Shown in pieces: positions 15,744-35,899 of a DNA stretch of 38,341 nt. Where the stretch lies: positions 1 through 38,341 of the IMG/VR virus record IMGVR_UViG_3300020045_005409. One strand, 5' to 3'. The translations under genes were made by a program, and so were the position numbers. The notes under the pieces are model-generated. The model worked only from the letters and a program-made list of their open reading frames with translations, did no database searches and was not told the origin of the DNA. Every line of letters begins with the position of its first letter. Position 1 is the first letter of the stretch. The DNA is from a virus. Lineage: Duplodnaviria > Caudoviricetes.

Positions 15744-15800
15744 ATATAAAAAAGACTCCCGTTAAGGAGTCTATAGTGACTTAATGGTTTGATTATAGCA
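15744..15800 (-). promoter_or_regulatory. Late promoter-leader-terminator element 1
   Basis: TGCTATAAT-N6-ATTA-AGTC-ACTATA-GACT-CC TTAACG GGAGTCT TTTTT ATAT ATG. Confidence 0.85.
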
Positions 15801-15814
15801 AATAAGGAGTCTGT

Positions 15815-16039
15815 TTATCTGCCGTTCTTTTCTAGTTCACTTTCAAACTGGTTTGACAACGTACTCACTTTTTTTACTAGCTCGAGGTAGGCCGAGGACA
15901 GTCCCTCACTTTCCGATTCACTTAAAGTGTTCATTGGATACTGTTTATTAAGCGTGGTATAGGAAAAAGAAATCTGTGATATCGCCTGCAAGAAATCCCT
16001 GAATCTTAACAGTTTCTGTGTAGTCTCCAATTTCATCAT
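15815..16039 (-). CDS. Hypothetical helical protein (moron-like)
   Basis: Own TGCTATAAT promoter 8 nt upstream; flanked by 14-bp direct repeats. Confidence 0.65.
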   Translation of the reverse strand: MMKLETTQKLLRFRDFLQAISQISFSYTTLNKQYPMNTLSESESEGLSSAYLELVKKVSTLSNQFESELEKNGR

Positions 16040-16059
16040 CGATGATGATTATAGCAAAT

Positions 16060-18012
16060 CTATTGTAGACCGTAGTCCGCAAACCTACGCTCCAGATCCT
16101 GAATCTTGTACAAGGCAGATTCCGGAGTGTCTTTCCATGTTGGTAGATAAGCCTCTAAATACGATTTCATCTCTGCTGGGGGGATAGCGGCTCCGGATTC
16201 CGGCCTTATTACAGCCATAATAACTTTCTCTGCCATAGATCTGTATTGTGGGTCTATTACTCCACCGGTTAGGGTACTCTTCTTCATCTTATCTAGTTTC
16301 AGACCAATCAATCTTCCGGAGTTATCATATATACCAAAATCTCTCTTTATCTGATCTAGGTTTCTCATTCCACCTTTCACAAGAACAGTCTGTGCCTGTG
16401 TCAGGGGGGTTCCGGCCTTTGGTTGAGCGTTTATTGAACTTTGATACTTGGTTTCTCTCTCTAACATGCTATACAAGTATTCCGCCGACTTCTTATCTCC
16501 AGCACTGAGAGCCTTTTGATATCCAGCCGCTATCTGTTCAGGGGTGTAACCGGATAAAGTCTTTTGAGGTATAATCTCTTGCTGATGGTTACTTTGATCG
16601 TATGGTGCATTTCCGCTCTGTTCGCTACCTATGCTATTTTGTTGTTGATCGGATGGTTGTTCGAAATTTGGCAGACTTGGAAGTCTAGCTGATACCTGTC
16701 CAGAGACTTGAGACGCTAACGGATTGGCCGACCTTTCCCCTATCCCCGTTGCTATTTGACCGGTCTTTTGTAAACCGGCTCCAAGTACGTCTTGAGCCGT
16801 CTGTAGCTTTCCGGCCGGCAGTGTAAATCCAGCCGCTCTGACAGTAGGAACAGTTTTCCTTGACCTACCTAAAGATTCTGCCGCATCGTATAAGTGACTT
16901 TCCTGAGTTGTGAGACGTTTTACGTCCGGGTGAGCTTTAGCTAAGACATCATCTAGTGTCTGCCTGGCTTTAGCTATAACGTAGTCTGTATCGTTGAGTG
17001 GCATTTTGCTTTTTATCTTCCTGGCCACGGCTCCGAAGTCTCCGTTTACCTGTTTCTTTAGGTTATACAGATTGACAGAGTCTATTGTTCCCGCATCTCC
17101 CATCAAGGACTTGATGTAACCATCCACTTCTTGTATGGCATTTTCGGGTAGTATTTCCTTTCTCCTGATAGAATCTTTAAGATTACTTATAAGATTGTTC
17201 TTAATTTCCTGGGAGTTAAATACCTTGTTATCTTTGGACAATATGCTCGATATTTTATTATTCATCTCGCTCATCCTAGGCTCTAACATTTCGTATTTCT
17301 TTTGTGCATTTCCTAAGATATTTAGATCGTCCAAAGTCTTTTGGATGGCCTTTTCTTTAGAGGCACCGGCTATGTCTGACTTGACATATATCTTAGACAC
17401 CCCCGATCTAGTTTCGGTTCCGGACTTCTCTACGAATCTACCCACTTTACCTAATACCTTAGATCCACCATGTAGTAAACCGGCACCTATTGCCCCAGTG
17501 GCGGCCCCCCCTATAGTTTCCTTTAGTGCTTTCTCCGGATTGTTCAAGTCCGCCTGAGATAGAGATTGTAGGCTTCCGACGGCCGCTCCAGGAAGCAAGG
17601 ACTTTGTGGCTAATCTACTTAGTGCCCCAGCTCCAGCCTTAGCTTTACCAAACGGGACGGCATAAGACATTACGTTTAAGCTGTCTTGAACTTGCTGTAA
17701 CCCTGCCTTACGAGGATCTTCGACCGACATCTTAGGCAACACATATCTAGCCGCTTTTTCCAGGGCTCCCTGTTCTCCACCTTTTCTGTTGGTAGCTAAT
17801 GCCCCCAGTGCCAGTCCAGTACCTATGATGTTCCTGCCAGTCCTCCAAAATGGGTTAACAATAGATTTACCTATATTGAGTAGCGCGCCTCCTGCCTTTT
17901 CAGTAAATGATTGAGGCTGTTGCTGAATAGACGGTAGTGGAGTTTGAGCCGCCATTCCTGGAGCATCTGGTACGTCGATCAATCTTCCCTGTGATTGTGA
18001 ATATACTTTCAT
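16060..18012 (-). CDS. Internal virion / DNA ejection protein
   Basis: 650 aa, A/G-rich helical with GAAxG segments; podovirus position between tail and lysis genes. Confidence 0.65.
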   Translation of the reverse strand: MKVYSQSQGRLIDVPDAPGMAAQTPLPSIQQQPQSFTEKAGGALLNIGKSIVNPFWRTGRNIIGTGLALGALATNRKGGEQGALEKAARYVLPKMSVEDPRKAGLQQVQDSLNVMSYAVPFGKAKAGAGALSRLATKSLLPGAAVGSLQSLSQADLNNPEKALKETIGGAATGAIGAGLLHGGSKVLGKVGRFVEKSGTETRSGVSKIYVKSDIAGASKEKAIQKTLDDLNILGNAQKKYEMLEPRMSEMNNKISSILSKDNKVFNSQEIKNNLISNLKDSIRRKEILPENAIQEVDGYIKSLMGDAGTIDSVNLYNLKKQVNGDFGAVARKIKSKMPLNDTDYVIAKARQTLDDVLAKAHPDVKRLTTQESHLYDAAESLGRSRKTVPTVRAAGFTLPAGKLQTAQDVLGAGLQKTGQIATGIGERSANPLASQVSGQVSARLPSLPNFEQPSDQQQNSIGSEQSGNAPYDQSNHQQEIIPQKTLSGYTPEQIAAGYQKALSAGDKKSAEYLYSMLERETKYQSSINAQPKAGTPLTQAQTVLVKGGMRNLDQIKRDFGIYDNSGRLIGLKLDKMKKSTLTGGVIDPQYRSMAEKVIMAVIRPESGAAIPPAEMKSYLEAYLPTWKDTPESALYKIQDLERRFADYGLQ

Positions 18013-18013
18013 G

Positions 18014-18925
18014 TTATGGAGCTACTTGGTACCACTGTCTACCATCTGTATACCATCCGTTTTTAATAGTTCCAGGTGCTGCACTATATTGTGGTTGTGC
18101 ATTAGACGATGACGTTTGGCCACCACTTAGATACCCGGAGGCATTGCTACCTGATGATAAGTAACTAGTTGGGTTTACTCCACCCCCGCTAGAACTTCCA
18201 TACGTCGATATCACCTGACCAGTTTGTGTATTAATAAGCTTCTTCTGACCATTTACTTCGATTATCTGAGTGTCTGGTGATTGTTGACTTAGTGATGCTT
18301 GTTGTACGTTTAACTGTTTCTGTCTTTCGAAGTTAGACTCTGCCATCGACAGTTCGTGAGCTCTGTTTTTCTCCGCCTCGCTTAGTTGAATACCGTTTTG
18401 TATCTTACTGATAATCGCAGAAAGTTCGTTTTGGTTGTCTTGGGAGTACAAGCTAGTTTCACGAGCATTACGTTCGGCTAGCATACCCTGTTCAGCATTC
18501 AAGGGGATAAGCCCTCTCTGGAACTGATTCTCTGCATATCCTAGTCTTCTGCCAAGCTCGCCTTCTGCATTTAATGCCTGTTCAGAAGCTCTTTGGGCAG
18601 CCGGTGCCAATTCGGCCTGTTTAGTGCCAACAACTCTTGCGAGCTGATTTGCGTTAACATCGAAACCTGTTGTTGCCTTAGAATACGTGTCCGGTAGTGC
18701 TCTCAGGTTCTCCTGCATGGATGCGGCGTTTTGTCTTAAAGCAGGAAGTCCTAGTTCAGCGCCAATGCGTTGAGACATAACCTCCATAGACGGTTGAGAC
18801 GAAACATAGCCACCAAGTTTACCTAAGAAATCGCCAGATCTGGTGTCTTGACCCGCAAGAAGTTCGGCTGTTCCAGCTCTCTGTTTCTGTACTGTATCGA
18901 CTGCTTGATTGAGGTTGGGCTCCAT
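18014..18925 (-). CDS. Internal virion / ejection protein
   Basis: Q/A-rich helical 303 aa; synteny. Confidence 0.6.
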   Translation of the reverse strand: MEPNLNQAVDTVQKQRAGTAELLAGQDTRSGDFLGKLGGYVSSQPSMEVMSQRIGAELGLPALRQNAASMQENLRALPDTYSKATTGFDVNANQLARVVGTKQAELAPAAQRASEQALNAEGELGRRLGYAENQFQRGLIPLNAEQGMLAERNARETSLYSQDNQNELSAIISKIQNGIQLSEAEKNRAHELSMAESNFERQKQLNVQQASLSQQSPDTQIIEVNGQKKLINTQTGQVISTYGSSSGGGVNPTSYLSSGSNASGYLSGGQTSSSNAQPQYSAAPGTIKNGWYTDGRQWYQVAP

Positions 18926-18984
18926 ATAACAAAAAGACCCGCTTTTGGCGAGTCTATAGTGACTTAATTAGCTAAATTATAACA
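18926..18984 (-). promoter_or_regulatory. Late promoter-leader-terminator element 2
   Basis: TGTTATAAT-N7-ATTA-AGTC-ACTATA-GACT-CGC CAAAA GCGGGTCT TTTTGTTAT ATG. Confidence 0.85.
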
Positions 18985-18986
18985 CT

Positions 18987-19832
18987 CTAGACCACCGGTA
19001 ACTCCACATAATTTATCCATGTAGGTTGTACACCAGTTCCAGACGTGTTTATGTAAACAGAGTCTCCCGCATTTAAAGCACCCAAGTTTTCTGGGAAAGA
19101 TGTGCCAGAAGCATTATTGGCGACAGCAGACTCCGGCTGGAAACGGTGGTTCTGCGATGGTGACTGTCCGGCAGGAACTACATAGAACCCCACGGTCCTA
19201 GATCCACCAGAAGTGTTTATATACCAGAGGGCTGAATACCAGAACAGGTGACCTATATCATTAAGTATCCAGGCCATCTTACCCGGAGGGACCTGATATA
19301 TCAGGTTGTATCCACTATTAAGAGATTCAAGCAGGCGTGCGCAATATAAAGGTGAGTCACTGCTGACTTCCATCCCTGATCCAAAGACATTAAGACCGGC
19401 CGCGGTTGAATTGATGGTTAAGGATTCTCCGCCTCGGAGGACTATCTGCCTTACTGCTGTCGAAAATGAAGTACTAGATAAGGCTGTTGTGGCGGTTAAC
19501 CTAACGTAATTACCACCTATCTTCAACTGAGAATATAAGCTGATAGATCCACCAGTCGGGTTGTATGATCTGAAAAATGTTATCAGACACTTTCTACCCT
19601 GTGGGCAGGTGTATATATCATAGTTTCCGCTAGGTATTCCTCCATCGCTTATCCTCACGTATTTGACATTGTTAAATAAGGGCATGGTGGGAGGTATTAC
19701 ATCTTCACCCAGATGCCTTACTTTTATTGTCCCCGGTATGATGTCTAGCTGAGATAACCTCCGGCTTTTTAAGGCATCGACTTCTTGTTGTAGTTTGTCT
19801 AATTTATCAGACAGGACTGTAGTGTCATCCAT
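18987..19832 (-). CDS. Tail needle/spike-like protein
   Basis: N-terminal coiled coil plus two similar beta-sandwich repeats (IYTCPQGR / IYQVPPGK; LRGGESL / LNAGDSV). Confidence 0.55.
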   Translation of the reverse strand: MDDTTVLSDKLDKLQQEVDALKSRRLSQLDIIPGTIKVRHLGEDVIPPTMPLFNNVKYVRISDGGIPSGNYDIYTCPQGRKCLITFFRSYNPTGGSISLYSQLKIGGNYVRLTATTALSSTSFSTAVRQIVLRGGESLTINSTAAGLNVFGSGMEVSSDSPLYCARLLESLNSGYNLIYQVPPGKMAWILNDIGHLFWYSALWYINTSGGSRTVGFYVVPAGQSPSQNHRFQPESAVANNASGTSFPENLGALNAGDSVYINTSGTGVQPTWINYVELPVV

Positions 19833-22800
19833 ATCTGCCTTCAGTTTGGTTACTATTGGCTATTGCCAAGACCGAGTTTAGCGTGGGTGATGTGGAGACC
19901 GATGTAGTCATGTCTATAGCCACTTGCATAGAATTGTACCTACCCTTAGTTGTTAGCAGCCTTACCACCTCATCACCAACTGCGGGGTCGTTAGTGTTAG
20001 CTATCCAATCAGAGTCTGCGTCTCTCTTGAACTTGATGTTTATAGACTCTCCGGTTAGTAGTGGATCAAAATTGGCTACTATTTCGGTCAGTTCCTTTTC
20101 TTTCCAGTTGCTATTGCTCTCGTCTACCAGGAACTCCATGGTGGCGGTAGGATAAGGGGCATTTGTTGTGAGTAGGTAGTCTACTCCATAAGACACGTTA
20201 TCTTGCCACCCGATCAGTAGTCTATTGCCCACTTTAGTAACCAAGCCTATGCTAACAGTCGAACCAGTATTGCCCGTGGATATAGGATAGTCATAGGTCA
20301 ATATATCTTGATATCGTCTATTGGTTGATCCATAGGTATAAACCCCTTTTCCGATAGCGGTGGAGGTGCTAGACCCAGACACACCAAACCTGATTAATGA
20401 ATTCCACATGCAAACCGCACCTGGGTACACCTCAGCCGCGTCGTCACCAATTAATGGTAATTCCTTAATCTTCTCGGCAGTATCTCCACCTACAAATACC
20501 AGCTGTTGCTGTTGTGGCCCCGCCCAAATAAATAACTTTCCCTCGGAAGATAGTAGGGCGTTAACCCCACCTTGAGGTATCTCTATAAACGTGTTAAATG
20601 TAGGCGAGTAACCGTCCCAGAAATATATCCGGCCTTGGTTGTTAAGATCATCCCCCTTAGTCACTCCAATAGCTAAGTATTCCCTCCACAGCTCCAAACA
20701 TCTAACTTTGTATCCTGCCGCCAATACGATCTTGTTTGGCTCGTATAGGGGATACTCGAACTTGGCTACGTGGCGTTCGTTACCGAATACGATGAAGTTG
20801 AGGAACTGTAGACCCGGATGCCATGATGTATCTTCAACCAAGAACTGATAGTAAGTTCTGTAAGATACACTTTCTAAGTCTGAGGCTGTTGTCGTGGTGA
20901 CTGTACCATCGGCCACCGTAGAAGTAATATGGAAATGGTAAGCGTTGGTAAAGTTAGTCAAAGGCCTCCACACACTTGAGAAAGTGAATTCATAATACCC
21001 CGTTGTCATATCGGCATTAGTAACGGTCTTGGTTGCTATTACATTGTTGAGCGAATCATGAACTGTTAGAGTCCAGTTACCAGTACCTACAGCCGCTACA
21101 AGGACAGCGATAGACTTTTGGGGGTCTTTGTTGGGAGTAAATGTCTTCCTGGCAGTAGAAGCTTCTGATATGGCCGTAGGGGTAGTGTAAGTATTTCCCG
21201 AAGTTGTAGCCTGCTGGTCAATATCCAACCTTGTCGTCGGCGAGGCAAAGGGTACATTTGTAGTAAATACTGGCGATCCGGAAGCCGTTAAGTTGTTAGC
21301 GTTAGCGGTGGAGTCATTAACATCATCATTCAGCTTGTAATAAGCCGCGAGTCCGGTGGTGTTAGTGGATATTTGGGTTGTCATTCCACTTACAAAGTCT
21401 GATGCTGACCTAACAGTGTTGAATACTCTTACCTCGTCAATAAGACCATCATAGAAGTGCTGAGCCGCTCCTGCTCCGTCAAAGTCACATCCTATGTTAA
21501 ATACTGAAGCGTTATCACTAATTGCAGTTAACGCGCCAGTTGTAGATCCAAGAGATACACCGTTTAAATAGAATGTTGCTGTACTCGTACTTGCAGTCCA
21601 TGCCACCGCTACGTGTTGCCATACGCCTGTTGTAATAGTGGCAGGTTTAGTCAAGTTCTCTGAGTTGGTTCCATTCGACGACACAGATAGCATCAAAGTA
21701 TAGCCATCCACACTACCCAAACTATTGTCTTGAGTAACATTGAGGGTGGGTGAAGTAGTCCCCGTGTAAGATGTGTAGTAGTCAAGATGGTTTCTGCCTG
21801 TTGACCCTGCTCCACCGTCTCCAGCTGTCTCGTCTTCTGATGTACCACCACTCCCACCGCCTGCAGTTACAAGACTAGACCCTAGTGTAGCGACTTGGCT
21901 CTTGATCATGTTCGACCCACCTGCACCACCACCTCCACCAGCTCCGTCAATTGAGCCATTATTACCAGCAGTTCCTGCAGACGTCACCGATCCGGTAATG
22001 GTAACAGTAGTGCCCGCTATCCAGCATATACCGCCTCCAATACCACCCGCACCTCCACTACCGGTGGCAGATAAGGCTCCTGATCCACCTCCACCACCAA
22101 ATACCATAGTCGTAAGGTCAGCAGACCCCGCGGCAATACCACCCGCACCACCAGTTCCGGATCTATCTGTTTGTCCCCGGGTTCCGGCGGAGCTGTTTCC
22201 ACCTCCACCACCACCGCCAGTTCCGTTATTTCCGGGAGCCCAATATCCACCTCCACCACCGTTGCCGTTATAAGAACTTGACTCAGTATCTGCCGCACCA
22301 GACGTCCCTTCTCCCTGTTTACCACTAGTGTCGGTGGATGTAATCTGCGTAGCCCCCCTGAATCCCTTACCCGATGCTGTTATGGTTCCTGTTACTGTCA
22401 CTGTTCCACTGGCTAAGAATCCAATGATACCCCCCACCGTACCGTTCCATGCCTTGGCGGTGTAGGTTATGCCTGAGTTTATAGTTACATTCGTATATTG
22501 CTTCAAGACTCTAACCTGTGCCCCTGATGTATATGTAGCATTCAAGGCGTCGACTAGGGTTATAGTGCCGGCTGTATACGATTGGATCTTGTTCTTCTGC
22601 CAGGTTCCTGCACCTGTCCCTCGGGACTGATGAATCAGTATTATTTGGCCAGTAGTGAACGAAGCGTTAGTAGCAGACAGTGATGATGTCCCAGACGTTC
22701 CCGTACAAGCAGAGTCGATAGGAGCTTCGGTTGTATTACTAGATATAGTAAGGGCTCCGTCCGAACCGTCACCAAAATAGTTCGACACAGTACCTATACC

Positions 22801-23433: not shown

Positions 23434-23441
23434 GTTATTTA

Positions 23442-24401
23442 TTAGCTAATTGTTGTTGACCATATCTTCCAAGTGGGGGATGAAACATTAGGCCCTCTCC
23501 TTACAAGGGTTTTTCTGTCCCTACTCTTATATCTATTTACCAAGCCAATTAGACCTCCTACCACTTGATTGCTACCAAATTGTCTGATGCTATTATTCAT
23601 ATCCCCAGTCCAAAATTTGTTGTTAAAAGCTGTACCCTTTTCCGTATCGTTTCTTAATCCAGAGTAATAATCTGCCGCTGTGCCGTCTGGCAGGATAACG
23701 TGTGCCTCTTCTGGTATATCGGGGGATTCACCTATCAGGTAGGTTAAGCTAGCGGCTGTAGCCGCATTCCACTTCTGGGTGAGTTCTATAGATGTAGCCG
23801 AGGTATAACTAGCTACCTTGTACCAATAACCTTGACCCGGGCTCGATGCAGAAGTAATCTGCAGCCATCTACCGACCATTGCCGAGGTGAATGTAGTACC
23901 CGAACCAGTGACCGTCTCGTCACCATTGGTCATTGTCACTGTGCCGGTAGTGTAATCATCAACAGACAGACTTCTATCTCTATTAAAAGAATTTATCGTT
24001 ATTGTGTAAGCGGCTTGAGGAATGGGCCAAATACCGTAATCGTCTTTGCGTGGGAATAAGAACTGAGGGACGGATGATGGTTGAATTGTCATCGCATTCA
24101 ATAGATTCCATGTATGCTGAGAATAAATCGTAGTTAGGGGATACACTACTGACCCTATAGTTATAGTTACTTCATCTAAGCTCTGTATACCTACAGGATT
24201 ATCGTAATACTGCTGTGAGGCCACTGTGGTATCGGTAGAAGCGGTACTGTTTATGTACTCTGCTAATGAACCGAATATCAATTGATACCTATTGGCCAAG
24301 TTGTAGTTAAAATCTGCCAGTAAACTAGTGTCGCTCATCTGATCAGACTTGCCTATATTCCTAAAGTGTGCCTCCTTGATTCCTTGGTACGTGAGTCGCA
24401 T
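23442..24401 (-). CDS. Head-to-tail adaptor / tail tubular protein with beta insertion
   Basis: Likely start MRLTYQ at 24401; IWPIP motif, ESPDIPEEAH; upstream of the nozzle gene. Confidence 0.65.
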   Translation of the reverse strand: MRLTYQGIKEAHFRNIGKSDQMSDTSLLADFNYNLANRYQLIFGSLAEYINSTASTDTTVASQQYYDNPVGIQSLDEVTITIGSVVYPLTTIYSQHTWNLLNAMTIQPSSVPQFLFPRKDDYGIWPIPQAAYTITINSFNRDRSLSVDDYTTGTVTMTNGDETVTGSGTTFTSAMVGRWLQITSASSPGQGYWYKVASYTSATSIELTQKWNAATAASLTYLIGESPDIPEEAHVILPDGTAADYYSGLRNDTEKGTAFNNKFWTGDMNNSIRQFGSNQVVGGLIGLVNRYKSRDRKTLVRRGPNVSSPTWKIWSTTIS

Positions 24402-24463
24402 GAGAGTAAAAAAAAGACCGGCCATCTCTGGTCGATCTATATTGATCTAATGAGTCAATTATA
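24402..24463 (-). promoter_or_regulatory. Late promoter-leader-terminator element 3
   Basis: TATAAT-N6-ATTA-GATC-AATATA-GATC-GACCA GAGA TGGCCGGTCT T7 ACTCTC ATG. Confidence 0.8.
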
Positions 24464-25009: not shown

Positions 25010-26485
25010 CTATTTGTAATACACCATAACCTCGAGGGCAGTAGACGGCGCACTATTCCCTCCACCAGTTGTGGCAGCGGCAATAGACATGGCTGTATCG
25101 AATGGAATACCTGCAAGTATCTCTATGTTTGCCCCCGAAGATGCCGGAATACAGTACACCAGTTTGGCCGTGGTAGTACCAACTGTCACACTAGCAGCGG
25201 CTACATTATAGACAAGAATATATACAGCTGAAGTATTGGGGTTGTAATAGTAGTAACCTCCAAATTTACCAGCACTAGCTTTAATCACTTGGGCAGAGTT
25301 GGTCAAGGCGGTATACGTATCACCGGAAGTGAAGTTACCGACACTCCAACCGCCTGTCGTTCTAGGTTGTATATCGACATCACCAATTAAGTTGGTACCA
25401 GCTGCAATAGACGTTACGTCCACATCTCCGATATCAACCCCCGAGTTCGCGGCCAACTTACCGATAGCATTAGTGCCGGCTGGTAGGGCGTTAGTAATAG
25501 ATGTAACAGCAGTGACTGTGGATACCGTAGTTATTGTCCCCGAGACTATATCAACATTACCTATATTGTTATCTCCCGCCGCAATAGACAATATATCTAC
25601 ATCTCCGATGTTGTTCGTTCCAGCATTCAAACCTACCAGACCAGTGCCGTTAGTCGGCAGTTCTACTCTTAGCGCACCCGTAGCAGTACCAGATCCGGTA
25701 ACTGGCTGTGTTCCGTTCCAATCCACCGATAGTGATGAAGAGTTATCTCCTACCTGAATGGGAGTCATAGAGGTCACCCCTTGGATAGTCAATACACCTC
25801 CAGCTGGAGTACCGGCCGAACCACTACCATCCGTAGTTATGACATTCCCCGAGTCGTTGATCCCCACTTCATCCCAAATACCAGATTGTGTCACCGCCAC
25901 AATCGGCATAGTGAGGACATCTACCTGCAATTCACCACTACTATCCGTCTTTACAACCTGTGGATTAGTACCGTCTTGCCCCAATATGGCTATACCTTTA
26001 GTTACCGTGCCTGATCCGCCTGTATACACGGTGTCATCTATAAGCTCCACTGCGGTCTTTATAGATCCCGAATTGGCTTCTGTCCAAGTGCCAGACTGAG
26101 TGGCGGCAACAGTACCATCGACCGTGATTGAGTTACCAGAGTCGTTTATACCTACCTCGTCCCACGTGCCAGACTGAGTTACAGCTACCGTGGCTAATGG
26201 TGTGAGAGTCGTTATCTGAGCGGCGGTCAATACAACCGGAACAGATGAAGCAGCCAGAGCCTGACCCAGAGCAGGGGTTTTGGTATCAATCGACGCTAGG
26301 GATGTATTACCGGTGTCCTGTTTAGCTGATGTAGCAAGACCAGTAGTGTCAATAGAAATACTCCCGGATATGACTATACCGTGAGTGGTGGGATCGGCAT
26401 ATAATGCAACCGGTGTAACACCGTCTACATTTGATATACCTAGTAGTGTTGGTATTCTGTTTCCGTCTCGTTTAGCTTCGGCCAT
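25010..26485 (-). CDS. Fibre-like virion protein with internal repeats
   Basis: Repeats VAVTQSGxWDEVGINDSGN x2 and IGDVD(I/V) x3-4; N-terminal AKRDGNR motif. Confidence 0.7.
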   Translation of the reverse strand: MAEAKRDGNRIPTLLGISNVDGVTPVALYADPTTHGIVISGSISIDTTGLATSAKQDTGNTSLASIDTKTPALGQALAASSVPVVLTAAQITTLTPLATVAVTQSGTWDEVGINDSGNSITVDGTVAATQSGTWTEANSGSIKTAVELIDDTVYTGGSGTVTKGIAILGQDGTNPQVVKTDSSGELQVDVLTMPIVAVTQSGIWDEVGINDSGNVITTDGSGSAGTPAGGVLTIQGVTSMTPIQVGDNSSSLSVDWNGTQPVTGSGTATGALRVELPTNGTGLVGLNAGTNNIGDVDILSIAAGDNNIGNVDIVSGTITTVSTVTAVTSITNALPAGTNAIGKLAANSGVDIGDVDVTSIAAGTNLIGDVDIQPRTTGGWSVGNFTSGDTYTALTNSAQVIKASAGKFGGYYYYNPNTSAVYILVYNVAAASVTVGTTTAKLVYCIPASSGANIEILAGIPFDTAMSIAAATTGGGNSAPSTALEVMVYYK

Positions 26486-26542
26486 ATAAAAAAAGAGACC
26501 CTCGAACCCGAGAGTCTATAGTGACTTAATACCCCAATTATA
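26486..26542 (-). promoter_or_regulatory. Late promoter-leader-terminator element 4
   Basis: TATAAT-N6-ATTA-AGTC-ACTATA-GACT-CTCG GGTT CGAGGGTCT CTTTTTTT AT ATG. Confidence 0.85.
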
Positions 26543-27299: not shown

Positions 27300-27319
27300 T
27301 GAGTAATTATATCATCGGA

Positions 27320-28219: not shown

Positions 28220-28238
28220 AGTTATATTTTATATTTTT

Positions 28239-28487
28239 TTAATCATTATTCCAAACTACTTCGCCAGAGTTAACGACAACTTCGTCTTCATAAGTAACTG
28301 CCAGGTCTAGTCCGTGGACCCTTTTGAAGTCTCCTCCTGATAAAGACTTTGCTACATATAGTTTAGTGGTTCCAGTTTCAATAGCCAGCTCACCAATTTG
28401 ACGTGCATACGTTGTCGAAGCAATCAGATTTGCTCTTGTATCATCTCCAACAATTATAGCTTGTGCAAACCTGTGACTATTTGCCAT
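28239..28487 (-). CDS. Small virion protein (fibre N-terminal-like motif)
   Basis: GELAIETGTTKLYV resembles the tail-fibre GExxxxTDTxxLY motif. Confidence 0.55.
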   Translation of the reverse strand: MANSHRFAQAIIVGDDTRANLIASTTYARQIGELAIETGTTKLYVAKSLSGGDFKRVHGLDLAVTYEDEVVVNSGEVVWNND

Positions 28488-28698
28488 GTATTACCTCTAA
28501 ATTATGTAAAGTTTCCTCTAAATCGGAATGAATTAGTTCACAAGGGGGATACCCTAATCCAACTCTTCTCTCTGTCTGCGTCACAATAACAAAACGACTA
28601 TCATCGCCTTGATAGACTTCGATGATCTTGTCTTTCATCTTGTCGTACTTATCCTTGATGCTCTTTTTCTGTTTTGTAAAGTCAATAGGTTTTTTCAT
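28477..28698 (-). CDS. Hypothetical protein
   Basis: Overlaps the neighbouring gene in the operon. Confidence 0.55.
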   Translation of the reverse strand: MKKPIDFTKQKKSIKDKYDKMKDKIIEVYQGDDSRFVIVTQTERRVGLGYPPCELIHSDLEETLHNLEVIHGK

Positions 28699-28700
28699 AG

Positions 28701-29537
28701 TTAGATATTAGTTCCTGTACCCAGACATGGGGAGGTAGGTTTTAAATTAAAATTAAAATTGGTTACATCTCTTAAAAGCGGATCGGACGTGATAACCCCC
28801 GTGCCAGTTGGGGCACTGGTCAATAGATAATAGTCGCTATACGTTGAGTTCCGTGTCGCAGACCCCAAAAGATGGGTTAGTGTTCCTCCAGAACTATTAA
28901 CCATAATGTTGTTTTTCTCAGTAATGGTATATCCAGCTCCCGCAAATGCAAATATACGTGGAACAGCACTGCCCCCCGTAACATTAAAAACCCAAGTGCA
29001 ACTGTTTAAAGTGAACGTTGCCGTTCCTCCATCGCAGTAAACTATTCCCTGAGCAGAACCGCCCGCCGTGCTATGAGTAATATTCCTAAGCATGCATGTA
29101 TTAAAGGTAAAGGATTTTCCGGGATCTGCTCTAAAAAGTGCATAGGAATAAATAATATCTCCGTAGGTATTGTTTTTAAATTGACAAAAGTTAAAAACAA
29201 AGTCGCCCGCAAATGCTCTGAAGTTTCCATTAGCTATCCCCGTCATCCCAGAAAAAACAATGCCCGTTAATGTGACAACTACTCCGGCAGTATTTATATA
29301 ATATTGAGCAGACGCATTACCAATCGTTACACTCCCGTTCGTTGTTGCGTTATAAGTCATTGTTTTGCTAAACGTTACACTTGCCATCGTGTATGTCCCG
29401 TTTGCCAAAATAACAGTATCTCCCGCTATTCCAGAAGCCTGTGTCTTTGCAACTGTCAACCAAGGTGTAGCAATGTTTTGAGCCTGAGCGTACGTATAAG
29501 AATCTGATCCTGTGGGTGATAAATATATAGTAGCCAC
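28701..29537 (-). CDS. Pectin-lyase-like beta-helix protein
   Basis: IYLSPTGSD...PWLT...AGDTVILANGTY...SDPL...FNLKPTSPCLGTG. Confidence 0.75.
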   Translation of the reverse strand: MATIYLSPTGSDSYTYAQAQNIATPWLTVAKTQASGIAGDTVILANGTYTMASVTFSKTMTYNATTNGSVTIGNASAQYYINTAGVVVTLTGIVFSGMTGIANGNFRAFAGDFVFNFCQFKNNTYGDIIYSYALFRADPGKSFTFNTCMLRNITHSTAGGSAQGIVYCDGGTATFTLNSCTWVFNVTGGSAVPRIFAFAGAGYTITEKNNIMVNSSGGTLTHLLGSATRNSTYSDYYLLTSAPTGTGVITSDPLLRDVTNFNFNLKPTSPCLGTGTNI

Positions 29538-29538
29538 G

Positions 29539-29733
29539 CTAGTACCCTCCTTTCTCTAAATTTATATTTCCATAATCGTAGTTAAAATTGCATGACGGGC
29601 AAAGCTCAATGTAATCGTTTACATCCCGAAAATATCTGTGGGATATGTTTGCTAGATGGGTATAGCATCTACCGTCCCTAGTCTCTTTTGAGGCTCCACA
29701 TTCATTGCATCTCTTTTTTATTTTATTTGCCAT
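29539..29733 (-). CDS. Small degenerate HNH-like protein
   Basis: CNEC...ANISHRYFRDVNDYIELCPSC. Confidence 0.5.
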   Translation of the reverse strand: MANKIKKRCNECGASKETRDGRCYTHLANISHRYFRDVNDYIELCPSCNFNYDYGNINLEKGGY

Positions 29734-29748
29734 AATATTTTTCCTAAA

Positions 29749-30336
29749 TTAAGTTGCTGATATTGTTCTTCCCCCTATCCAATCTCCTGCGGGATAGGCT
29801 CCCATATCGTTGGTATAGGAATGAGTAAGTGGAAGTCCGTTTAATCCTAAATCGTTAATACTGTTTCCCGTCATTACCTCAATGTATCTTGTAAATCCTA
29901 CTGGTAAGTGTTCGAGTGCGTATCCATATGATGAGTTCTCTCGAAAGACGAAGTTAGAAACAATGGTGTTCCAGGTACCGTTAACATAAATCTGCAATGT
30001 GCTCCCAGACGCTCTCAAAGGGATACGAGTAGCACTAGCATTAGTTGTATCTACGTTGGAGCCAATATAGCAATCGGATAGGGTTTTTTGAGAGACCCAA
30101 TCAGTGTCTATCCCAATTAGAGAGTTGTCTTGGGTGTAACCCATATCTACACCAGTACCAGGACGAGTGAGTAGTTTGAGGGGATGGTAGTAGAGTGTTC
30201 CACCTTGCCAGATCAGCATTTCCGACGTATCAGTAGTAAATCCCAAAACAGTAGAGGTTGTGCTTAGAGCCTCGATATTGGCTCTCGTGTCTACTTTGAT
30301 CTTGAATGGTGCCGCAGCGAAGGGTAAGAGTGCCAT
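29749..30336 (-). CDS. Hypothetical virion protein
   Basis: LGFTTDTSEMLIW; LQIYVNGTW; structural-gene context. Confidence 0.65.
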   Translation of the reverse strand: MALLPFAAAPFKIKVDTRANIEALSTTSTVLGFTTDTSEMLIWQGGTLYYHPLKLLTRPGTGVDMGYTQDNSLIGIDTDWVSQKTLSDCYIGSNVDTTNASATRIPLRASGSTLQIYVNGTWNTIVSNFVFRENSSYGYALEHLPVGFTRYIEVMTGNSINDLGLNGLPLTHSYTNDMGAYPAGDWIGGRTISAT

Positions 30337-30827
30337 TATGATCCAAGAAAACTAATAACATCTGCGGAAGTACCGATAGCGTATAACGTGTTTGTGTTGT
30401 TTCCAGCGTAAGAAACACTTGCTCCGGGTTCAAGAATATAACCATTTCCTGACCCATCAGCCGTTGTGGTGACTCCAGATCCTCCTAATAGAACGTTGGC
30501 GGTATTTGTAGACTTGGCCGTGATGATTACTCCATTGATTAGAGTATTGGTTTGTAGCTGAACAGCAGAACCAGTCATAGCCTTTTGGCCGACTAGAGGA
30601 GATGAAGAGAGGGCGTTGGCGGTAACTTGAGTCTTTTGAGAACCGTCTGTTTGATTGGCAGAAGTAGCGGCTCCTGTTGGTAAAGGTACCGTGCCGGATA
30701 TACTAGCCTGTACTAATACCTCTCCAGTAACTGGGTCAACTGCCGCGTTAGCAGGTGTGGCCATGTCAAGGGAAGACACCCCGATCAGGGTAGTTACTCG
30801 GTTGTCATCTCTCTTTGCGTTTGCCAT
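30336..30827 (-). CDS. Short fibre-like virion protein
   Basis: N-terminal AKRDDNR motif, LPTGAATSANQT, C-terminal beta domain. Confidence 0.7.
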   Translation of the reverse strand: MANAKRDDNRVTTLIGVSSLDMATPANAAVDPVTGEVLVQASISGTVPLPTGAATSANQTDGSQKTQVTANALSSSPLVGQKAMTGSAVQLQTNTLINGVIITAKSTNTANVLLGGSGVTTTADGSGNGYILEPGASVSYAGNNTNTLYAIGTSADVISFLGS

Positions 30828-30890
30828 ATAACAAAAAAGACCCTATCCCGTTAGAGATAGAGTCTATATCGACTTAATATCTAAATTATA
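30828..30890 (-). promoter_or_regulatory. Late promoter-leader-terminator element 5
   Basis: TATAAT-N6-ATTA-AGTC-GATATA-GACT-CTATCTC TAAC GGGATAGGGTCT TTTTTGTTAT ATG. Confidence 0.85.
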
Positions 30891-31134
30891 CTTGCGATCT
30901 CCGTTGTAGTCGAGCTTCTGTAGCTTCTATATTCTTTTCACGTGCATCAAGCAGTTCTTTGCGCTCACGAGATATTACTTTTTCTTTCTCGACGATACGT
31001 TCACGATTGGCCAACTCCTCCTCCTGTAGTTTAAGATCCTCCTCTTTAGACTTGATCGCTGTATAGACCTTATATGCTTCATCCAAAGCACTCTCTAAAT
31101 CAGCAATCTTTTTAGCTAGTTCTTCAGGATTCAT
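30886..31134 (-). CDS. Coiled-coil protein, paralog of 26545-27078
   Basis: ELANRERIVEKE...LDAREKNIEATEARLQ. Confidence 0.7.
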   Translation of the reverse strand: MNPEELAKKIADLESALDEAYKVYTAIKSKEEDLKLQEEELANRERIVEKEKVISRERKELLDAREKNIEATEARLQRRSQV

Positions 31135-31393
31135 TTACTTCTATCTCTTCTTTAATCTTACGCATTTTATCTTCACTTAGCCTGCTTACATCCCTATCGT
31201 TAGCAACCTCCTCAACTAGATGTTTAATCATGTGATCTGCAAGGTAAGTGGGAAACGTCTCAATTTCCATAGACCTAATGACATATTCCACCTGGGTATT
31301 GTCATCATTGCGATACTTAGCCCTGAAGTCTCGAGATAGGGGGTTAAATACCGACTTTGGGGCGTCGTTTCTCTTCATCCACCTTACGTCCAT
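31124..31393 (-). CDS. Hypothetical protein
   Basis: VFNPLSRDF...FPTYLA motif shared with 31543-32193. Confidence 0.65.
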   Translation of the reverse strand: MDVRWMKRNDAPKSVFNPLSRDFRAKYRNDDNTQVEYVIRSMEIETFPTYLADHMIKHLVEEVANDRDVSRLSEDKMRKIKEEIEVNES

Positions 31394-31550
31394 CTTCTAG
31401 TTGCTGAATGGCTTCTAATAATAAAATAGATAATTCCAGTTGGCTCTTGGGAGTAATCTTGCCGAAAGTATTTAGACTCTCAAGATAGGTTCTGAATGAC
31501 ATATCGAGCATCGGCATCTCGAATAACTCTTGTAGCTTATCCTTAATCAT
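31344..31550 (-). CDS. Hypothetical protein
   Basis: Overlapping operon packing. Confidence 0.6.
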   Translation of the reverse strand: MIKDKLQELFEMPMLDMSFRTYLESLNTFGKITPKSQLELSILLLEAIQQLEDGRKVDEEKRRPKVGI

Positions 31551-32193
31551 TAGTTACCTCCGCCTCTAGGTCTTTCTTGCTTGTTCTTGGTGCTTTCTTA
31601 GCCTCGAATGTCACTGTAGTGTCCTGTACGGGCTGTTGTGATACTTGGACGGTGTCTGATACCTTTCGATTATTAAGTCCTTGGAGAATCTTAACTTCGT
31701 CTGGGGTGATATCTACTTCACCGGCTCTAGAGTTGGTCCTTTCTATGTCATCTTTACCAAACTCGTAGACTACACCGATCCATAGCTTGTCATATATGTC
31801 CACAGACTTTTTATAGTCATCTGTTCTCGGATATTCGGGAGTCATGTATGTTTCCTGGTTCTCTTCGTACTTGCTCTTGTAATCAGCAAAGCCCTTGGTC
31901 CGTCTCTCGGCCAAGAAATCATCGTGTCTCTTTTTATTCTCTGATTCAATGATGGCTACTTTCATATCCCGACAGTAGGCAGTAGCGACATATCTAGGTA
32001 CATCTTTAGTTGAGTTAGCTGGAAAGCGATGCATTTGAGTCTCCCACTTAACATAAAAATCTTTGTCAGTTGGGTTCAGCACTCTAATAACGTCGTTAGC
32101 TCTTCGCCTCATTTCTGCATGCCAAGCCTCTTCCTTGCCCGTTCTAGGTTGTGATACGCCGCCATCGGCATTTATGTTTGGGAAGTCGTCCAT
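31543..32193 (-). CDS. Hypothetical protein
   Basis: 216 aa; VLNPTDKDF...VPRYVA. Confidence 0.7.
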   Translation of the reverse strand: MDDFPNINADGGVSQPRTGKEEAWHAEMRRRANDVIRVLNPTDKDFYVKWETQMHRFPANSTKDVPRYVATAYCRDMKVAIIESENKKRHDDFLAERRTKGFADYKSKYEENQETYMTPEYPRTDDYKKSVDIYDKLWIGVVYEFGKDDIERTNSRAGEVDITPDEVKILQGLNNRKVSDTVQVSQQPVQDTTVTFEAKKAPRTSKKDLEAEVTND

Positions 32194-32195
32194 TT

Positions 32196-32348
32196 TTATT
32201 TGTCTTTAGTAATTTCTGCTTCTTTACCAGACAAGACTACGTTAAGACGTTCAGCCAGGGAAACTATTATCTTTGCATTCTCGAAATTATACGAACATTG
32301 AGCGATCACTGCTAACAAAACTTTGATTTCTTTAGGTGTAAGTTCCAT
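32196..32348 (-). CDS. 50-aa hypothetical protein
   Basis: Below cutoff; MELTPKEIKVLLAVIAQ...; TGATATAAT at 32370-32378 upstream. Confidence 0.6.
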   Translation of the reverse strand: MELTPKEIKVLLAVIAQCSYNFENAKIIVSLAERLNVVLSGKEAEITKDK

Positions 32349-32381
32349 ATCTTAGGATTATCTCCCAAGATTATATCATTC

Positions 32382-32885
32382 CTACAATCCCGAGTCTGCC
32401 ACGCTCCCATCAGTCCCCCAGGGGCACCAGATGCAATAGTAGTCAATTACCCCCGATGTAATGTTACTAGTAGCCACTGTCATGATAATGTCCTGTCCGT
32501 TTAGAGCGTATTCGGGTAGATTGTCGGCGGCGGCAGACTGTTCACCCAGAATGAAGTAAGCCCCTACAGTAGCGTTATTGATAACATAGTCACCTGAGTT
32601 AATATCTACCGCATCTTCGGTTGGTAAATAGATTGTGGTGGCTCCAGCGATACCCACAGCGTGAGTGCCTGTACCGGCCAAGTTAGTTGTGCAAATTCCA
32701 AACACTCTGGCTCTAACTGACCCAGTAACGGTGAATATTGCGGCTCCATCCAAGGCTCCTCCATCATCACCCCAGGCATCGGTAGTAGCACCAGCGAATG
32801 TAATCGTCTTCTTGGTGATTATTCCGTCCGTCCAAATCGGTACACGATTAGCGTCCCTGTAAAAGGCAGAGGTTATTGTAGCCAT
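32382..32885 (-). CDS. Virion beta-sandwich/spike protein
   Basis: RDANRVP N-terminal motif; IFTVTGSV...SGVIDYY. Confidence 0.65.
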   Translation of the reverse strand: MATITSAFYRDANRVPIWTDGIITKKTITFAGATTDAWGDDGGALDGAAIFTVTGSVRARVFGICTTNLAGTGTHAVGIAGATTIYLPTEDAVDINSGDYVINNATVGAYFILGEQSAAADNLPEYALNGQDIIMTVATSNITSGVIDYYCIWCPWGTDGSVADSGL

Positions 32886-32903
32886 ATTTAAACTACCTTA
32901 GTA

Positions 32904-33875
32904 TTAGTCAACCGTTGGGTTGATGGCCTGTCCGACTGCGTTAGCAGTGGCCGTGTATTGGGTTGTCCAAATTCTTCCTGACGCGGTCGACTCCCAGTTA
33001 TCGATTCCAACTAGCAGTTGGTCACCGGTTAGAAGAACATGTCCAGTTGTTGTCTGTGTCGCTAGGTTCATACATGCGGCGATTTGAGCGGCATCGTTGG
33101 AAGTAAAGTTGTACCACAGACAATCATTGAATCTTACCCATCTGTCTATAGAGTTGGCTTCTGAGAAGTAAATGTGTCGTGGGGTTGTAGCGTCACTAGA
33201 CATAATGAATTGACACCCGTCAAACACGTTTCTTGAAGCGGCAGATGCAAATTCAACAGTGTAGTTTGCGGCTGATCTGTCAAAAGTATCAGCTCCAAAA
33301 GTACAACCGGAGAAAGTGTTCTCTTGCGCGCCCGAAAGTACCAGGGCACGTGCGGCAGTGTCATCTCCAGTGGTTGCATTCAAAGAACCCTTAAAGTCAA
33401 CACCGATAAATGAGTTGTAATCTCCAGTAATAGTCACGGGGACGTTAATGTCGGTCGTACCGTTAAAAGTAAGATTCTTGAAGATACAACCATTCTCGGA
33501 GATAGTTAGCGATCCACCAGTACCAAAGGAGATACCAGCACGAGCATCCTGAAAGGTAGGAGCGGCGTTACCAACTAAATGAGTAAACCTCTTTGCCCAT
33601 GTAATAGCTGTCGTCTCAGCGGCTCGACCGGTTCCACCGGTGGGGACAATCAAAACTACATCGTGATAACCAGAAGTAGCTAGAGCATAACCAGCGGAGA
33701 CTGTAGCTAGGGCATCATCCAAAGATGATCCACCAGCACTGTCACTTCCACCACTAGGGTCGACATAGATAATCTTACCTACATATGGCAGTCCCAGCAT
33801 ACCTGCTAGGTCTTGTGGCATAATCTTCGCGCCATATCTCATGGCTGGAATGTGATCGCTTAGTTTTAAGCTCAT
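32904..33875 (-). CDS. Beta-helix (pectin-lyase-like) virion protein
   Basis: IYVDPSGGSD...ALAT...; repeated NxFxGCxF rungs; AAGGAG SD. Confidence 0.7.
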   Translation of the reverse strand: MSLKLSDHIPAMRYGAKIMPQDLAGMLGLPYVGKIIYVDPSGGSDSAGGSSLDDALATVSAGYALATSGYHDVVLIVPTGGTGRAAETTAITWAKRFTHLVGNAAPTFQDARAGISFGTGGSLTISENGCIFKNLTFNGTTDINVPVTITGDYNSFIGVDFKGSLNATTGDDTAARALVLSGAQENTFSGCTFGADTFDRSAANYTVEFASAASRNVFDGCQFIMSSDATTPRHIYFSEANSIDRWVRFNDCLWYNFTSNDAAQIAACMNLATQTTTGHVLLTGDQLLVGIDNWESTASGRIWTTQYTATANAVGQAINPTVD

Positions 33876-33937
33876 TTTTTATTTCTCCTTTTACACTCTC
33901 CCGTTACGAATCGGGGTCAAATGTGAGTAATTTTTAA

Positions 33938-34681
33938 TTAGTCGATACAAAGTTCTACAGGTACTGGTACGCCTGAGTCGTTAGCTTGCATAGCTCTACC
34001 GACGGTGTTGCATTTACCAGTTCCCGCTACGTTTACACCTACATACCCAGCGGTTGCACCTGGTACTCCGACGTCTGAACCTGCGGCGAATGTCGAACTG
34101 TCTGAATAGACTGCGGCTACACCCTTGGTCTGAAGCCATCCATATTCTCCGGAAGCGACTGGGTAGATAGCTACACCAGCGACTGTGGCAGTAAGAGTTG
34201 TGGCGGCTTTGACGACTCCACTCCATGGACTCCTACGAAGAGTCACTTTAGTGGAAGTGGTCCAAGCAGTTGCTAGAGGCCTATCTAGAGTGAACACCAA
34301 TGCTGCACCAGAACCACCAGTGGTGTGTCCGGTGATGGTGTATTCATTTCCCACATCTGGGGTAACTCTTACACAAACCGTGCCACCGTTGAAGTCACCT
34401 GCGGCGACAGTTGTGGTTCCGTTAGTGATGTTAACAGTTTGCTCAGCTCCACCAGTTGCAATTGCACTTGCGGTCACAGCCATGTTATTGAACTGGGTAT
34501 CGATAACTGGACCCTGGTACACATCTCCGACCACCAATAGTTCACCGGCTCTTACATACCTAAATGCTTTACCGTGTTTACCGTACAGCAACTGACCTAA
34601 CTCATAGTGATAGTCTGGTTGTGTGCTGGAGCTATATAGGTTTGCATTAGAGATTACTCCTGTACCTGTTATTTGTGCCAT
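33938..34681 (-). CDS. Capsid decoration/cement-like protein
   Basis: Directly after the MCP; GKAFRYVRAG, YGWLQTKG motifs. Confidence 0.6.
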   Translation of the reverse strand: MAQITGTGVISNANLYSSSTQPDYHYELGQLLYGKHGKAFRYVRAGELLVVGDVYQGPVIDTQFNNMAVTASAIATGGAEQTVNITNGTTTVAAGDFNGGTVCVRVTPDVGNEYTITGHTTGGSGAALVFTLDRPLATAWTTSTKVTLRRSPWSGVVKAATTLTATVAGVAIYPVASGEYGWLQTKGVAAVYSDSSTFAAGSDVGVPGATAGYVGVNVAGTGKCNTVGRAMQANDSGVPVPVELCID

Positions 34682-34711
34682 ATGTTTTTATTAGTTTGTT
34701 TGTAAATAATA

Positions 34712-35806
34712 TTAGACACTTGTAATACCAGTTAACCTACCATTTCGGCGTGATTCCCATGCACACATCTGTCCAATGACGTAGAAGCGACCGATGGTTC
34801 CCGCTTGGTTAGGCAAGATCATATCTTTCTGATAGAACCAACCATTGTATTCAGATGGCATATCGAGTGAATCTGCACCTACGGATTCGTAAGCCTTAGC
34901 TGTTCCTAGGTTAACTTTCTCAACCATACCCTTGTATTTAGCAGGTACTATTGATCGACCGACCCAACCAAAGGAGTCTTCATTCAAGAAGAGCAAGTAA
35001 CCAGGTGTACAGAAGTCATCGGCGATGATTGGCTTGCTTCTGTATTGAATAGAATTGAAGCCTGCACCGTTCTGAGCTTTATCACCACGATTGACACTGT
35101 TTGCTCTTATACCCAGTCTGTCATACCCAACGGCATCGTATGTTTGACGTACGTTTGGCTGAAGAAGCTGTTCGTAGAGACTGAACACGGCTTTGGTGGT
35201 TACACCAATATTGGTGTTGGATGGCATGAGGGATGCTGCACGAGTAGCATCATCAAGAGTCGCCATCTTGGCGAGGGTCAATGACCCACCAGAAGCTGTA
35301 TCAGTAGCATTCAATTGAGAATAGGTTGCACGAGATTGACCACCGATTGTTCCAGTGTCCTCAACGATGATACCAAGACCGTTGGGTCTGTTAGCAGTAC
35401 CGTCAGCGTATACAGCAGAACCGAGGCGTTGCAAAGCTTCTGCGGCGGCTTTCTCATATTTGAACACGTCAAGGTTGATGGTTGCGGTTGAACCCACGTT
35501 AGCGAAATCCTCAAGCATGATACCGACCTTTGGCTGGGTGAATGCTGTGTGTGCATAACTTAGTACGATGGTCGTGTTGGTAGCAGAACCGTTGAGGGTC
35601 TCAAGACCTACGAAGAACTCACCTTGAGTGTCAGCAACTACATCGACGGTGTAATCCATCGTCTTGCCTTCCATCTGTTCACCCTTGGACATGACACGAG
35701 AGTAAAAAGTGGGAGCGTTCAAAATGTTGTCAACTACCTTTGCGTGTAGTTTTCTTTCATTGAAGTTATCTACTCTGTTTCCGTATTGAATTCCGTCGTA
35801 TGCCAT
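34712..35806 (-). CDS. Major capsid protein
   Basis: 364 aa after the scaffold; KVVDNIL, DGT..PNGL, IGGQSRATY, GFNSIQYRSKPIIAD, RRNGRLTGI. Confidence 0.85.
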   Translation of the reverse strand: MAYDGIQYGNRVDNFNERKLHAKVVDNILNAPTFYSRVMSKGEQMEGKTMDYTVDVVADTQGEFFVGLETLNGSATNTTIVLSYAHTAFTQPKVGIMLEDFANVGSTATINLDVFKYEKAAAEALQRLGSAVYADGTANRPNGLGIIVEDTGTIGGQSRATYSQLNATDTASGGSLTLAKMATLDDATRAASLMPSNTNIGVTTKAVFSLYEQLLQPNVRQTYDAVGYDRLGIRANSVNRGDKAQNGAGFNSIQYRSKPIIADDFCTPGYLLFLNEDSFGWVGRSIVPAKYKGMVEKVNLGTAKAYESVGADSLDMPSEYNGWFYQKDMILPNQAGTIGRFYVIGQMCAWESRRNGRLTGITSV

Positions 35807-35838
35807 ATTTGGTTTTTGTTTTTTATAATAGTAAGCAT

Positions 35839-35899
35839 AAAAAAAGCCACCCGGTTAGGGGCGGCTTATATTAGCCTACTTTAGTTAGGAAGAATTTTA
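35839..35899 (-). promoter_or_regulatory. Late promoter-leader-terminator element 6 (variant, before MCP)
   Basis: TAAAAT...GTA-GGCT-AATATA-AGCC-GCCC CTAACC GGGTGGC T7. Confidence 0.75.

Follow-up and report, generated by a model that had tools for sequence, protein, structure and literature searches.

A conserved hairpin overlapping terminators ahead of phage virion genes: a candidate protein-gated RNA switch

Introduction

Textbook control of phage late genes relies on Q-type antiterminators, activators, phage sigma factors or phage polymerases. The virus record IMGVR_UViG_3300020045_005409, a linear sequence of 38,341 nucleotides (nt) that is 92% complete and was analysed whole (hereafter, the window), raises the question of how else a phage might license the genes for its virion. 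An initial annotation of this DNA had described six leaders, dispersed over the minus strand, in which a small hairpin overlaps a terminator, and had proposed that a loop-binding factor switches on all late modules together. The analysis reported here indicates that the leader is a strongly conserved phage RNA element, best read from its sequence as a switch in which a protein gates the terminators ahead of virion genes. The joint switching of all late modules was overstated, and the favoured candidate for the factor is a zinc-ribbon protein, ZN85, encoded between the terminase and portal genes.

Results

Six leaders in the window share one plan

The presence of six leaders on the minus strand was confirmed where the initial annotation had placed them. 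Each consists of a −10 box, a TA, a 4-bp stem closing a 6-nt loop (the mini-hairpin), and an overlapping predicted terminator:

35837-35922, minus strand: element 1, before the capsid gene; TTGACA; −10 box 35899-35894; mini-hairpin 35876-35863; terminator ~35867-35846; U-tract from 35845
30828-30890, minus strand: element 2, before the open reading frame (ORF) 30336-30827; −10 box 30890-30885; mini-hairpin 30874-30861; U-tract from 30838
26486-26542, minus strand: element 3, before ORF 25010-26485; −10 box 26542-26537; mini-hairpin 26526-26513; U-tract from 26494
24402-24463, minus strand: element 4, before an adaptor-like gene (ATG at 24401) and a gene of 1202 amino acids (aa); −10 box 24463-24458; mini-hairpin 24447-24434; U-tract from 24415
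18926-18984, minus strand: element 5, before ORF 18014-18925; −10 box 18981-18976; mini-hairpin 18964-18951; U-tract from 18937
15744-15800, minus strand: element 6, before ORF 15432-15743 and presumed lysis genes; −10 box 15797-15792; mini-hairpin 15781-15768; U-tract from 15755

A structure-only detector, which asked for pairing, a TA-ended loop and a U-tract, found exactly these six in the window and no others; they account for six of the seven distinct terminators predicted on its minus strand. Thirty dinucleotide shuffles of the window yielded two elements in total, neither with a −10 box. The −10 box at 35899 is TAAAAT, with TTGACA 17 nt upstream, and those at 30890, 26542, 24463, 18981 and 15797 are TATAAT. 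The stems and loops read GGCT-AATATA-AGCC, AGTC-GATATA-GACT, AGTC-ACTATA-GACT (three copies) and GATC-AATATA-GATC, each preceded by TA. As had been described, spacing is short in five copies and longer before the capsid gene: the stem starts 10–11 nt after the −10 box (17 nt in the capsid element), and the ATG lies 9–14 nt downstream of the start of the U-tract (39 nt for the capsid gene). Element 4 had been correctly located, but the gene behind it starts at 24401.

A search of the elements against Rfam, proposed in the initial annotation as a check, returned nothing at gathering score and two irrelevant weak matches at E ≤ 10. When viral contigs were scanned for exact 16-mers, 25 matches turned up, none with a −10 box and terminator, and these were attributed to chance. 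A DNA palindrome serving a dimeric repressor was ruled out, as the stems differ inside one phage while pairing is kept.

Two other hairpins in the window, neither with a terminator, cover start codons on the minus strand. One, ATG-TC-AGATATA-GACA (27299-27285), lies behind a leaderless TATAAT at 27311; the other is TGAA-AGTATA-TTCA (18012-17998, start codon at 18011). They are possibly translational sites or due to chance.

The leader is conserved and its stem covaries

Relatives, designated below by G and L numbers, were gathered by capsid-protein searches, and 47 capsid leaders were scored: 29 of the 30 loci of a first set (L057, a duplicate, was left out) and 18 of the 56 of a second, whose remaining loci were duplicates or lacked upstream DNA. 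A mini-hairpin with an overlapping terminator was called in 42 of the 47, and 29 different stem pairs occur among them. Applied to 274 host terminators, this relaxed test called 25. The leaders not called were those of L034, L143, L148 and L038/L039. The loops of L034 and L143 start with G (L034 was nonetheless called by the strict detector), and no terminator precedes the capsid gene in L038/L039. Judging by these leaders, the capsid gene appears to be the constant target and its leader the conserved core.

In an alignment of 43 matches fitted to the model, each of the four mini-stem pairs varies on both sides and 88% of the cells are paired, a value inflated by the choice of alignment rows for pairing; sliding controls gave 31–52%. 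The covariation whose absence in homologues had been named as refuting is therefore present, and pairing is kept while the stem changes, as had been claimed from the window.

A census of units in which a promoter is followed by a terminator covered 11 further loci in addition to the window and the 18 relatives fetched. Mini-hairpins were found in 50 of 76 such units on the late strand and in none of eight on the early strand; 400 kb of two Patescibacteria contigs contained 29 units, none with a mini-hairpin. At promoters lacking a terminator, there was no clear late-strand enrichment of mini-hairpins (about 19/445 versus 7/284, hand count). The 50 called units have uninterrupted stems of 3–5 bp and loops of 5 nt (25 units), 6 nt (23) or 7 nt (2). 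The loop begins with A in all 50 and the mini-hairpin shares 2–7 nt with the terminator in all 50, both being conditions of the detector, and UA ends the loop in 46. The RMUAUA hexaloop given in the initial annotation thus describes the window but not the family, in which loops of 5–7 nt start with A and usually end with UA.

Loop length is a property of the phage. All 46 within-phage pairs agreed in it, against 20.8 expected (0 of 10,000 permutations), even as stems differ, a uniformity that leaves out the uncalled copies of G006 and G010. Between phages it varies, with at least 3–4 changes on the capsid tree.

Some relatives show other arrangements. L058 (63-170) has two hairpin–terminator units in tandem before the capsid gene. 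L212, a distant relative, carries four copies (178, 7096, 8890 and 11954) of a different conserved leader, AAGGCC-R-CCGCC...GGCGG-TCTTTT, in which a mini-hairpin is hard to make out. The capsid start codon is ATC, ACG, ATT or ATA where others have ATG in L030, L033, L124, L129, L133, L140 and L154, and TTG in some other relatives.

Promoters, folding order and a proposed mechanism

Late-strand TGnTATAAT sites (n = 137) are followed by an ATG at exactly 6 nt in 36 cases and at 5–7 nt in 56, other distances accounting for 1–6. Because the ATG clusters 6 nt downstream, these sites are likely to be real leaderless promoters, which places the +1; in most units this would put the start of the mini-hairpin between about +2 and +5. 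In each of the 47 leaders folded (three of the 50 units were left out, their stem starting ahead of the assumed +1), the mini-hairpin was predicted to be dominant in the short transcript (p > 0.5) and gone in the full leader (p < 0.1). The computed cost of forcing it in the full leader had a median of 5.7 kcal/mol (range 1.5–9.3), a gap that a bound protein could reach.

Under the mechanism we propose, the host RNA polymerase would start 6 nt past the −10 box and the mini-hairpin would form first. With no reader, the terminator would displace it and transcription would stop after about 40–55 nt; a phage protein bound to the mini-hairpin would instead prevent its 3′ strand from pairing in the terminator stem, allowing the block to be transcribed. 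Since the elements are the predicted late terminators, opening them would let transcripts arriving from upstream pass as well. The repetition of the element before each block, with its own promoter, suggests that the switch is probably non-processive, unlike those of lambda Q or N.

The terminator/antiterminator logic of the initial annotation is supported by the covariation, the folding order and the absence of the mini-hairpin from early-strand and host promoter–terminator units, and the leader is very probably a real RNA switch. That all late modules are switched on together was overstated: promoters at 32375, 27311, 16053 and 1123 of the window are ungated, as are most late promoters of G007, G009, G012, G016 and G017.

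A zinc ribbon between terminase and portal is the favoured reader

In an all-against-all comparison of 19 genomes, no regulator encoded on the early strand proved conserved; on the late strand, two small zinc ribbons did, ZN85 and ZN108. All 18 relatives encode ZN85 (79–150 aa, ~85 aa in its typical form), in each case between terminase and portal. Its alignment shows four putative zinc-binding cysteines (CxxC...Cx(2-4)C). The predicted structure is all-beta (pLDDT, the predicted local distance difference test, 92) with no clear solved-fold match (best Z 2.4), and comparison with Pfam, PHROG, NCBIfam, PDB and folds returned only generic zinc-ribbon noise. An ungated TATAAT or TATACT lies 6–7 nt ahead of its start in 11 of 18 relatives, and in several phages the gene ends just upstream of a gated portal leader. 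In G001, G013, G014 and G021 the protein is doubled by a tandem second zinc-ribbon domain; the loops in that clade are all 5 nt. Real matches to ZN85 and ZN108 in 401 genomes of the phylum of G001 were confined to the phage contig, a second ZN85 match being a 21-aa frame with stops. An autoregulatory hairpin over the ZN85 start was considered and rejected: it was seen in only three of 18 relatives, and codon constraints could account for it.

The outgroups also point to ZN85. In the clade of the TM7 phage DolZOral124_53_65 (MG269973) and its relatives, the terminase adjoins the portal gene in 23 loci, with no ZN85; no strict element was found in 25 loci (433 kb), and none of 14 capsid leaders seen has a terminator. 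ZN108-like remnants are weakly kept there (E 3e-4 to 6e-3), the zinc part being missing in MG269973. ZN85 and the element thus appear to have been lost together, which separates ZN85 from ZN108. MW202566, for whose capsid gene no relatives were found by search, has ZN85 (E 7e-10) and a bulged hairpin within a strong terminator ahead of the capsid gene. L184 lies nearer to the TM7 phage; it encodes a zinc ribbon of 73 aa at the ZN85 position, and in its leader GGC-AUAUA-GCC is buried inside an 11-bp terminator. In both of these distant relatives a zinc-ribbon gene at that position goes with a hairpin-in-terminator leader, which speaks for ZN85.

The initial annotation had listed ORFs 3845, 1521, 4332, 8636 and 15815 as candidate readers. 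Only 1521 proved conserved (17 of 18 relatives); 15815 matches two of 18, and among the matches listed there was none to 3845 or to the ORFs near 4332 and 8636. ZN85 is outside that list; its gene would lie in the terminase–portal stretch missing from the record. ORF 1521 is ZN108:

1521-1847, minus strand: ZN108, 108-aa zinc ribbon after groES-groEL, in 17 of 18 relatives; second candidate reader

It gave no match to PHROG, PDB sequences or folds (best Z 2.9) and belongs to no known family; its 335 relatives at E ≤ 0.001 are unnamed, and its Atlas neighbours are hypothetical viral proteins. The same RNA switch could be read by ZN108 or by another conserved late protein, for instance as assembly feedback. 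The breadth of ZN108, its position at the head of the packaging block and its conserved basic and QP-x-R-x-G residues agree with such a role, but the survival of its remnants in a clade devoid of the element, and a tree that requires five loop-length changes, make this unlikely.

Less probable again is that a host protein, or the host RNA polymerase and Nus machinery, reads the hairpin and that the phage borrows a host system. No known antiterminator family was found in five phage genomes, in line with the initial annotation, promoter–terminator units do exist in host contigs, and a near-match precedes trmD in G062; the host test is moreover indirect, as the contigs searched may not be those of the true host. 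However, the mini-hairpin is absent from all 29 host units, the single match of the covariance model among 101 host-phylum genomes is weak and has a mismatch in the stem (~62 candidates were scored per genome), and loop length is phage-specific. In the G062 sequence (L101, 1494-1565), a host TATAAT is followed by a near-element, mismatched at one stem position, and by a terminator; trmD (PF01746) comes immediately after.

A phage-coded reader is likely. That it is ZN85 we hold at slightly better than even, and that the leader is a local transcription switch read by a phage protein, ZN85 being the foremost candidate, is a reading we favour with some caution.

Several observations weigh against this reading. 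Twenty-six of the 76 late units were uncalled; in the uncalled copies of G010 a mini-stem with U-U mismatches follows a fixed TAGGTT, and those of G006 have other or mixed loop lengths and a first base other than A. The ungated promoters of the window and of the five relatives named above do not fit a full master switch, and with the promoter of ZN85 itself and many other late promoters ungated, the scheme offers no source for delay. The window lacks the terminase–portal stretch, so that its ZN85 is presumed from synteny only. Loop length requires four changes on the ZN85 tree, the same as on the capsid and portal trees (five on that of ZN108). The co-loss in the TM7 clade appears to be essentially one evolutionary event among near-identical phages, and the L184 protein resembles ZN85 weakly (E 0.004–0.016). 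L214 and L215 have ZN85 and a promoter and terminator before the capsid gene, without a recognisable mini-hairpin. Conversely, G009 (L038) and L039 retain hairpins with no terminator before the capsid gene, and G009 has both zinc ribbons.

In L038 and L039, the tandem mini-hairpins lie ~90 nt before the capsid ATG, and an AGGAGG is predicted to pair with an upstream CCCCU; a shift from transcriptional to translational control is possible there.

Comparison with known systems

The closest parallel is the ribonucleic antiterminator (RAT) bound by BglG, SacY and LicT, described in PMC5393181 as 29–33 nt long, with two conserved internal loops and a 6–10 nt overlap with the terminator. As there, a leader hairpin overlaps the 5′ arm of an intrinsic terminator, and the predicted action is local and non-processive (PMC5393181; PMC12591593). 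Here, however, the hairpin is of 11–16 nt with no internal loop (in the main family), the overlap is of 2–7 nt and the targets are virion genes. The CAT domain (PF03123) was found in none of five phage genomes, with positive E. coli and B. subtilis controls, host-coded CAT lying outside the search. The element is best read as working like RAT-type switches, but with a different RNA shape and candidate protein.

The protein side recalls Com of phage Mu, a C4 zinc finger (PMC6483171) that binds a hexaloop hairpin with a variable stem of 3–4 bp, remodels the adjacent structure and, by reading CC(N)2-3GAG, switches on translation of one gene. The two systems have in common a small phage protein with a C4 zinc motif, and a short hairpin having a variable 3–4 bp stem, a ~6-nt loop and a competing structure alongside; they differ in that the output predicted here is transcription of up to six blocks and the loops are AU-rich. 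PF10122 (Zn_ribbon_Com) was found in none of five genomes at E ≤ 1 and was absent from the best 25 of 31 families for 17 ZN85 members; GAG occurs in 0 of 50 loops.

ANTAR targets (EutV, NasR and AmiR) are dual hexaloops with A1 and G4 (PMC8934654). They share with the element a small hairpin, a ~6-nt loop, an A at position 1 and the overlap with a terminator, but G4 occurs in 0 of 50 loops here, 25 of 50 loops are of 5 nt and the hairpins are single, tandem ones being confined to G009 and L039. The distinction from ANTAR drawn in the initial annotation is thus upheld. No ANTAR domain (PF03861) was found in five phage genomes, a search in which no control passed the cut-off, nor among 66 window proteins.

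Antiterminators of the lambda Q, AlpA and gene transfer agent types load on the polymerase by way of a DNA element and a pause that depends on sigma, and their action is processive. As with these, the late genes lie behind a constitutive sigma70 promoter with a terminator immediately after it; unlike these, no such DNA element is seen and the conserved feature is the transcribed hairpin before each block. The 50 units taken jointly showed no conserved DNA box at −42 to −17 (only RTGn ahead of the −10 box) and no fixed-position TAnnnT pause motif, its occurrences being spread over 15 positions, each in ≤3 of 50 units. This argues against a Q or AlpA mechanism and bears out the separation from lambda Q made at the outset.

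The same data make it rather improbable that the hairpin serves to load a processive N-, Q- or Alp-type antiterminator, or is a site of Com-like translational control, with the overlap secondary. Such roles are suggested by the terminator-less hairpins of G009 and L039, with a ribosome-binding site predicted in the stem, and by weak hairpins over leaderless starts (window 27299 and 18012; ZN85 of G009, G011 and G020). Against them, the overlap is present in every called unit (by detector condition), and the U-tract keeps its place relative to the hairpin but not to the ATG, from which it lies 6–115 nt away. Least probable is factor-free tuning, in which the mini-hairpin is a co-transcriptional kinetic trap and a fixed leak of the terminator sets virion stoichiometry: the early folding of the mini-hairpin, the spread of the energy gap between copies and the many late promoters that do without a switch are compatible with it, but it requires no conserved loop, yet the loop has a nearly constant end, a first A (by detector condition) and a length fixed per phage.

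No published description of such a phage system was found in the open-access literature, supplements and most subscription papers lying outside the scope of that search.

Gene content and probable host

The window contains a capsid gene, groES-groEL, an adaptor-like gene and HNH genes. The features needed to orient the elements are:

1-720, minus strand: presumed N-terminal part of the large terminase, from gene order and end sequence; truncated by the contig end
1844-3740, minus strand: groES-groEL encoded by the phage, heading the packaging block
34712-35806, minus strand: major capsid protein gene (phrog_9953, E 2.5e-25)
37298-38341, minus strand: C-terminal part of a portal-type gene, from the other contig end; portal label by synteny with MW202566

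About 2 kb between the terminase and portal genes would be absent from the record, going by the 39–44 kb of relatives. Among the module labels of the initial annotation, those of capsid and adaptor found library support (the latter through PF24175, below cut-off), but fibre, ejection and lysis had no library match; the ORFs after elements 2 and 3 are putatively fibre-type, that after element 5 ejection-type, and those after element 6 putative lysis genes.

The groES-groEL pair is retained in 13–14 of 18 relatives and in the TM7 phage, and is missing from G007, G008 and G009. Between its promoter (TTGACG-17-TAAACT) and groES, an 8-bp hairpin without a U-tract (3752-3800, minus strand) stands back to back with a leaderless helix-turn-helix gene at 3845. 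Two unannotated and apparently paralogous proteins (31124-31393 and 31543-32193, minus strand), with the motif NP-L/T-x-x-DF, are present in nearly all relatives. A 63-aa ORF on the plus strand (12195-12386) consists mostly of Gly-Asp, Gly-Asn and Gly-Tyr repeats.

The host probably belongs to the Patescibacteria. This is suggested, though not proven, by one complete relative binned in a Patescibacteria genome, by the nearest annotated phage being a TM7 phage and by the many leaderless genes; three others fall in unrelated bins. That nearest phage, MG269973, whose host is a member of the Saccharibacteria, resembles the window in its capsid protein (32% identical), groEL and size, but has neither the element nor ZN85. 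No integrated copy of the phage was found in the searches for relatives. The available text of 10.1101/2024.03.08.584096 describes patescibacterial phages as few and unclassified and does not mention promoters.

Discussion

In its widest form, the proposal would be that one tiny zinc ribbon encoded beside the terminase and portal genes reads a 14-nt hairpin before each assembly block, opening terminators locally with phage-specific loop codes, and that this is widespread; we put it forward tentatively, at a little short of even. If true, phages would have a further route to license virion genes, without a processive antiterminator, an activator or a phage polymerase, and the switch would be the smallest protein-gated antiterminator known. 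A function would be provided for a class of small unannotated genes at terminase–portal junctions. Since the parts are tiny (a 45-nt leader and an 80-aa protein), the promoters are of the sigma70 type and natural loop variants exist, the claim lends itself to a direct test in E. coli, and orthogonal transcription switches could come of it. The circuit would be one of the first in gene regulation to be defined for Patescibacteria phages, and would offer a handle on gene control in the viruses of uncultured bacteria of the Candidate Phyla Radiation (CPR).

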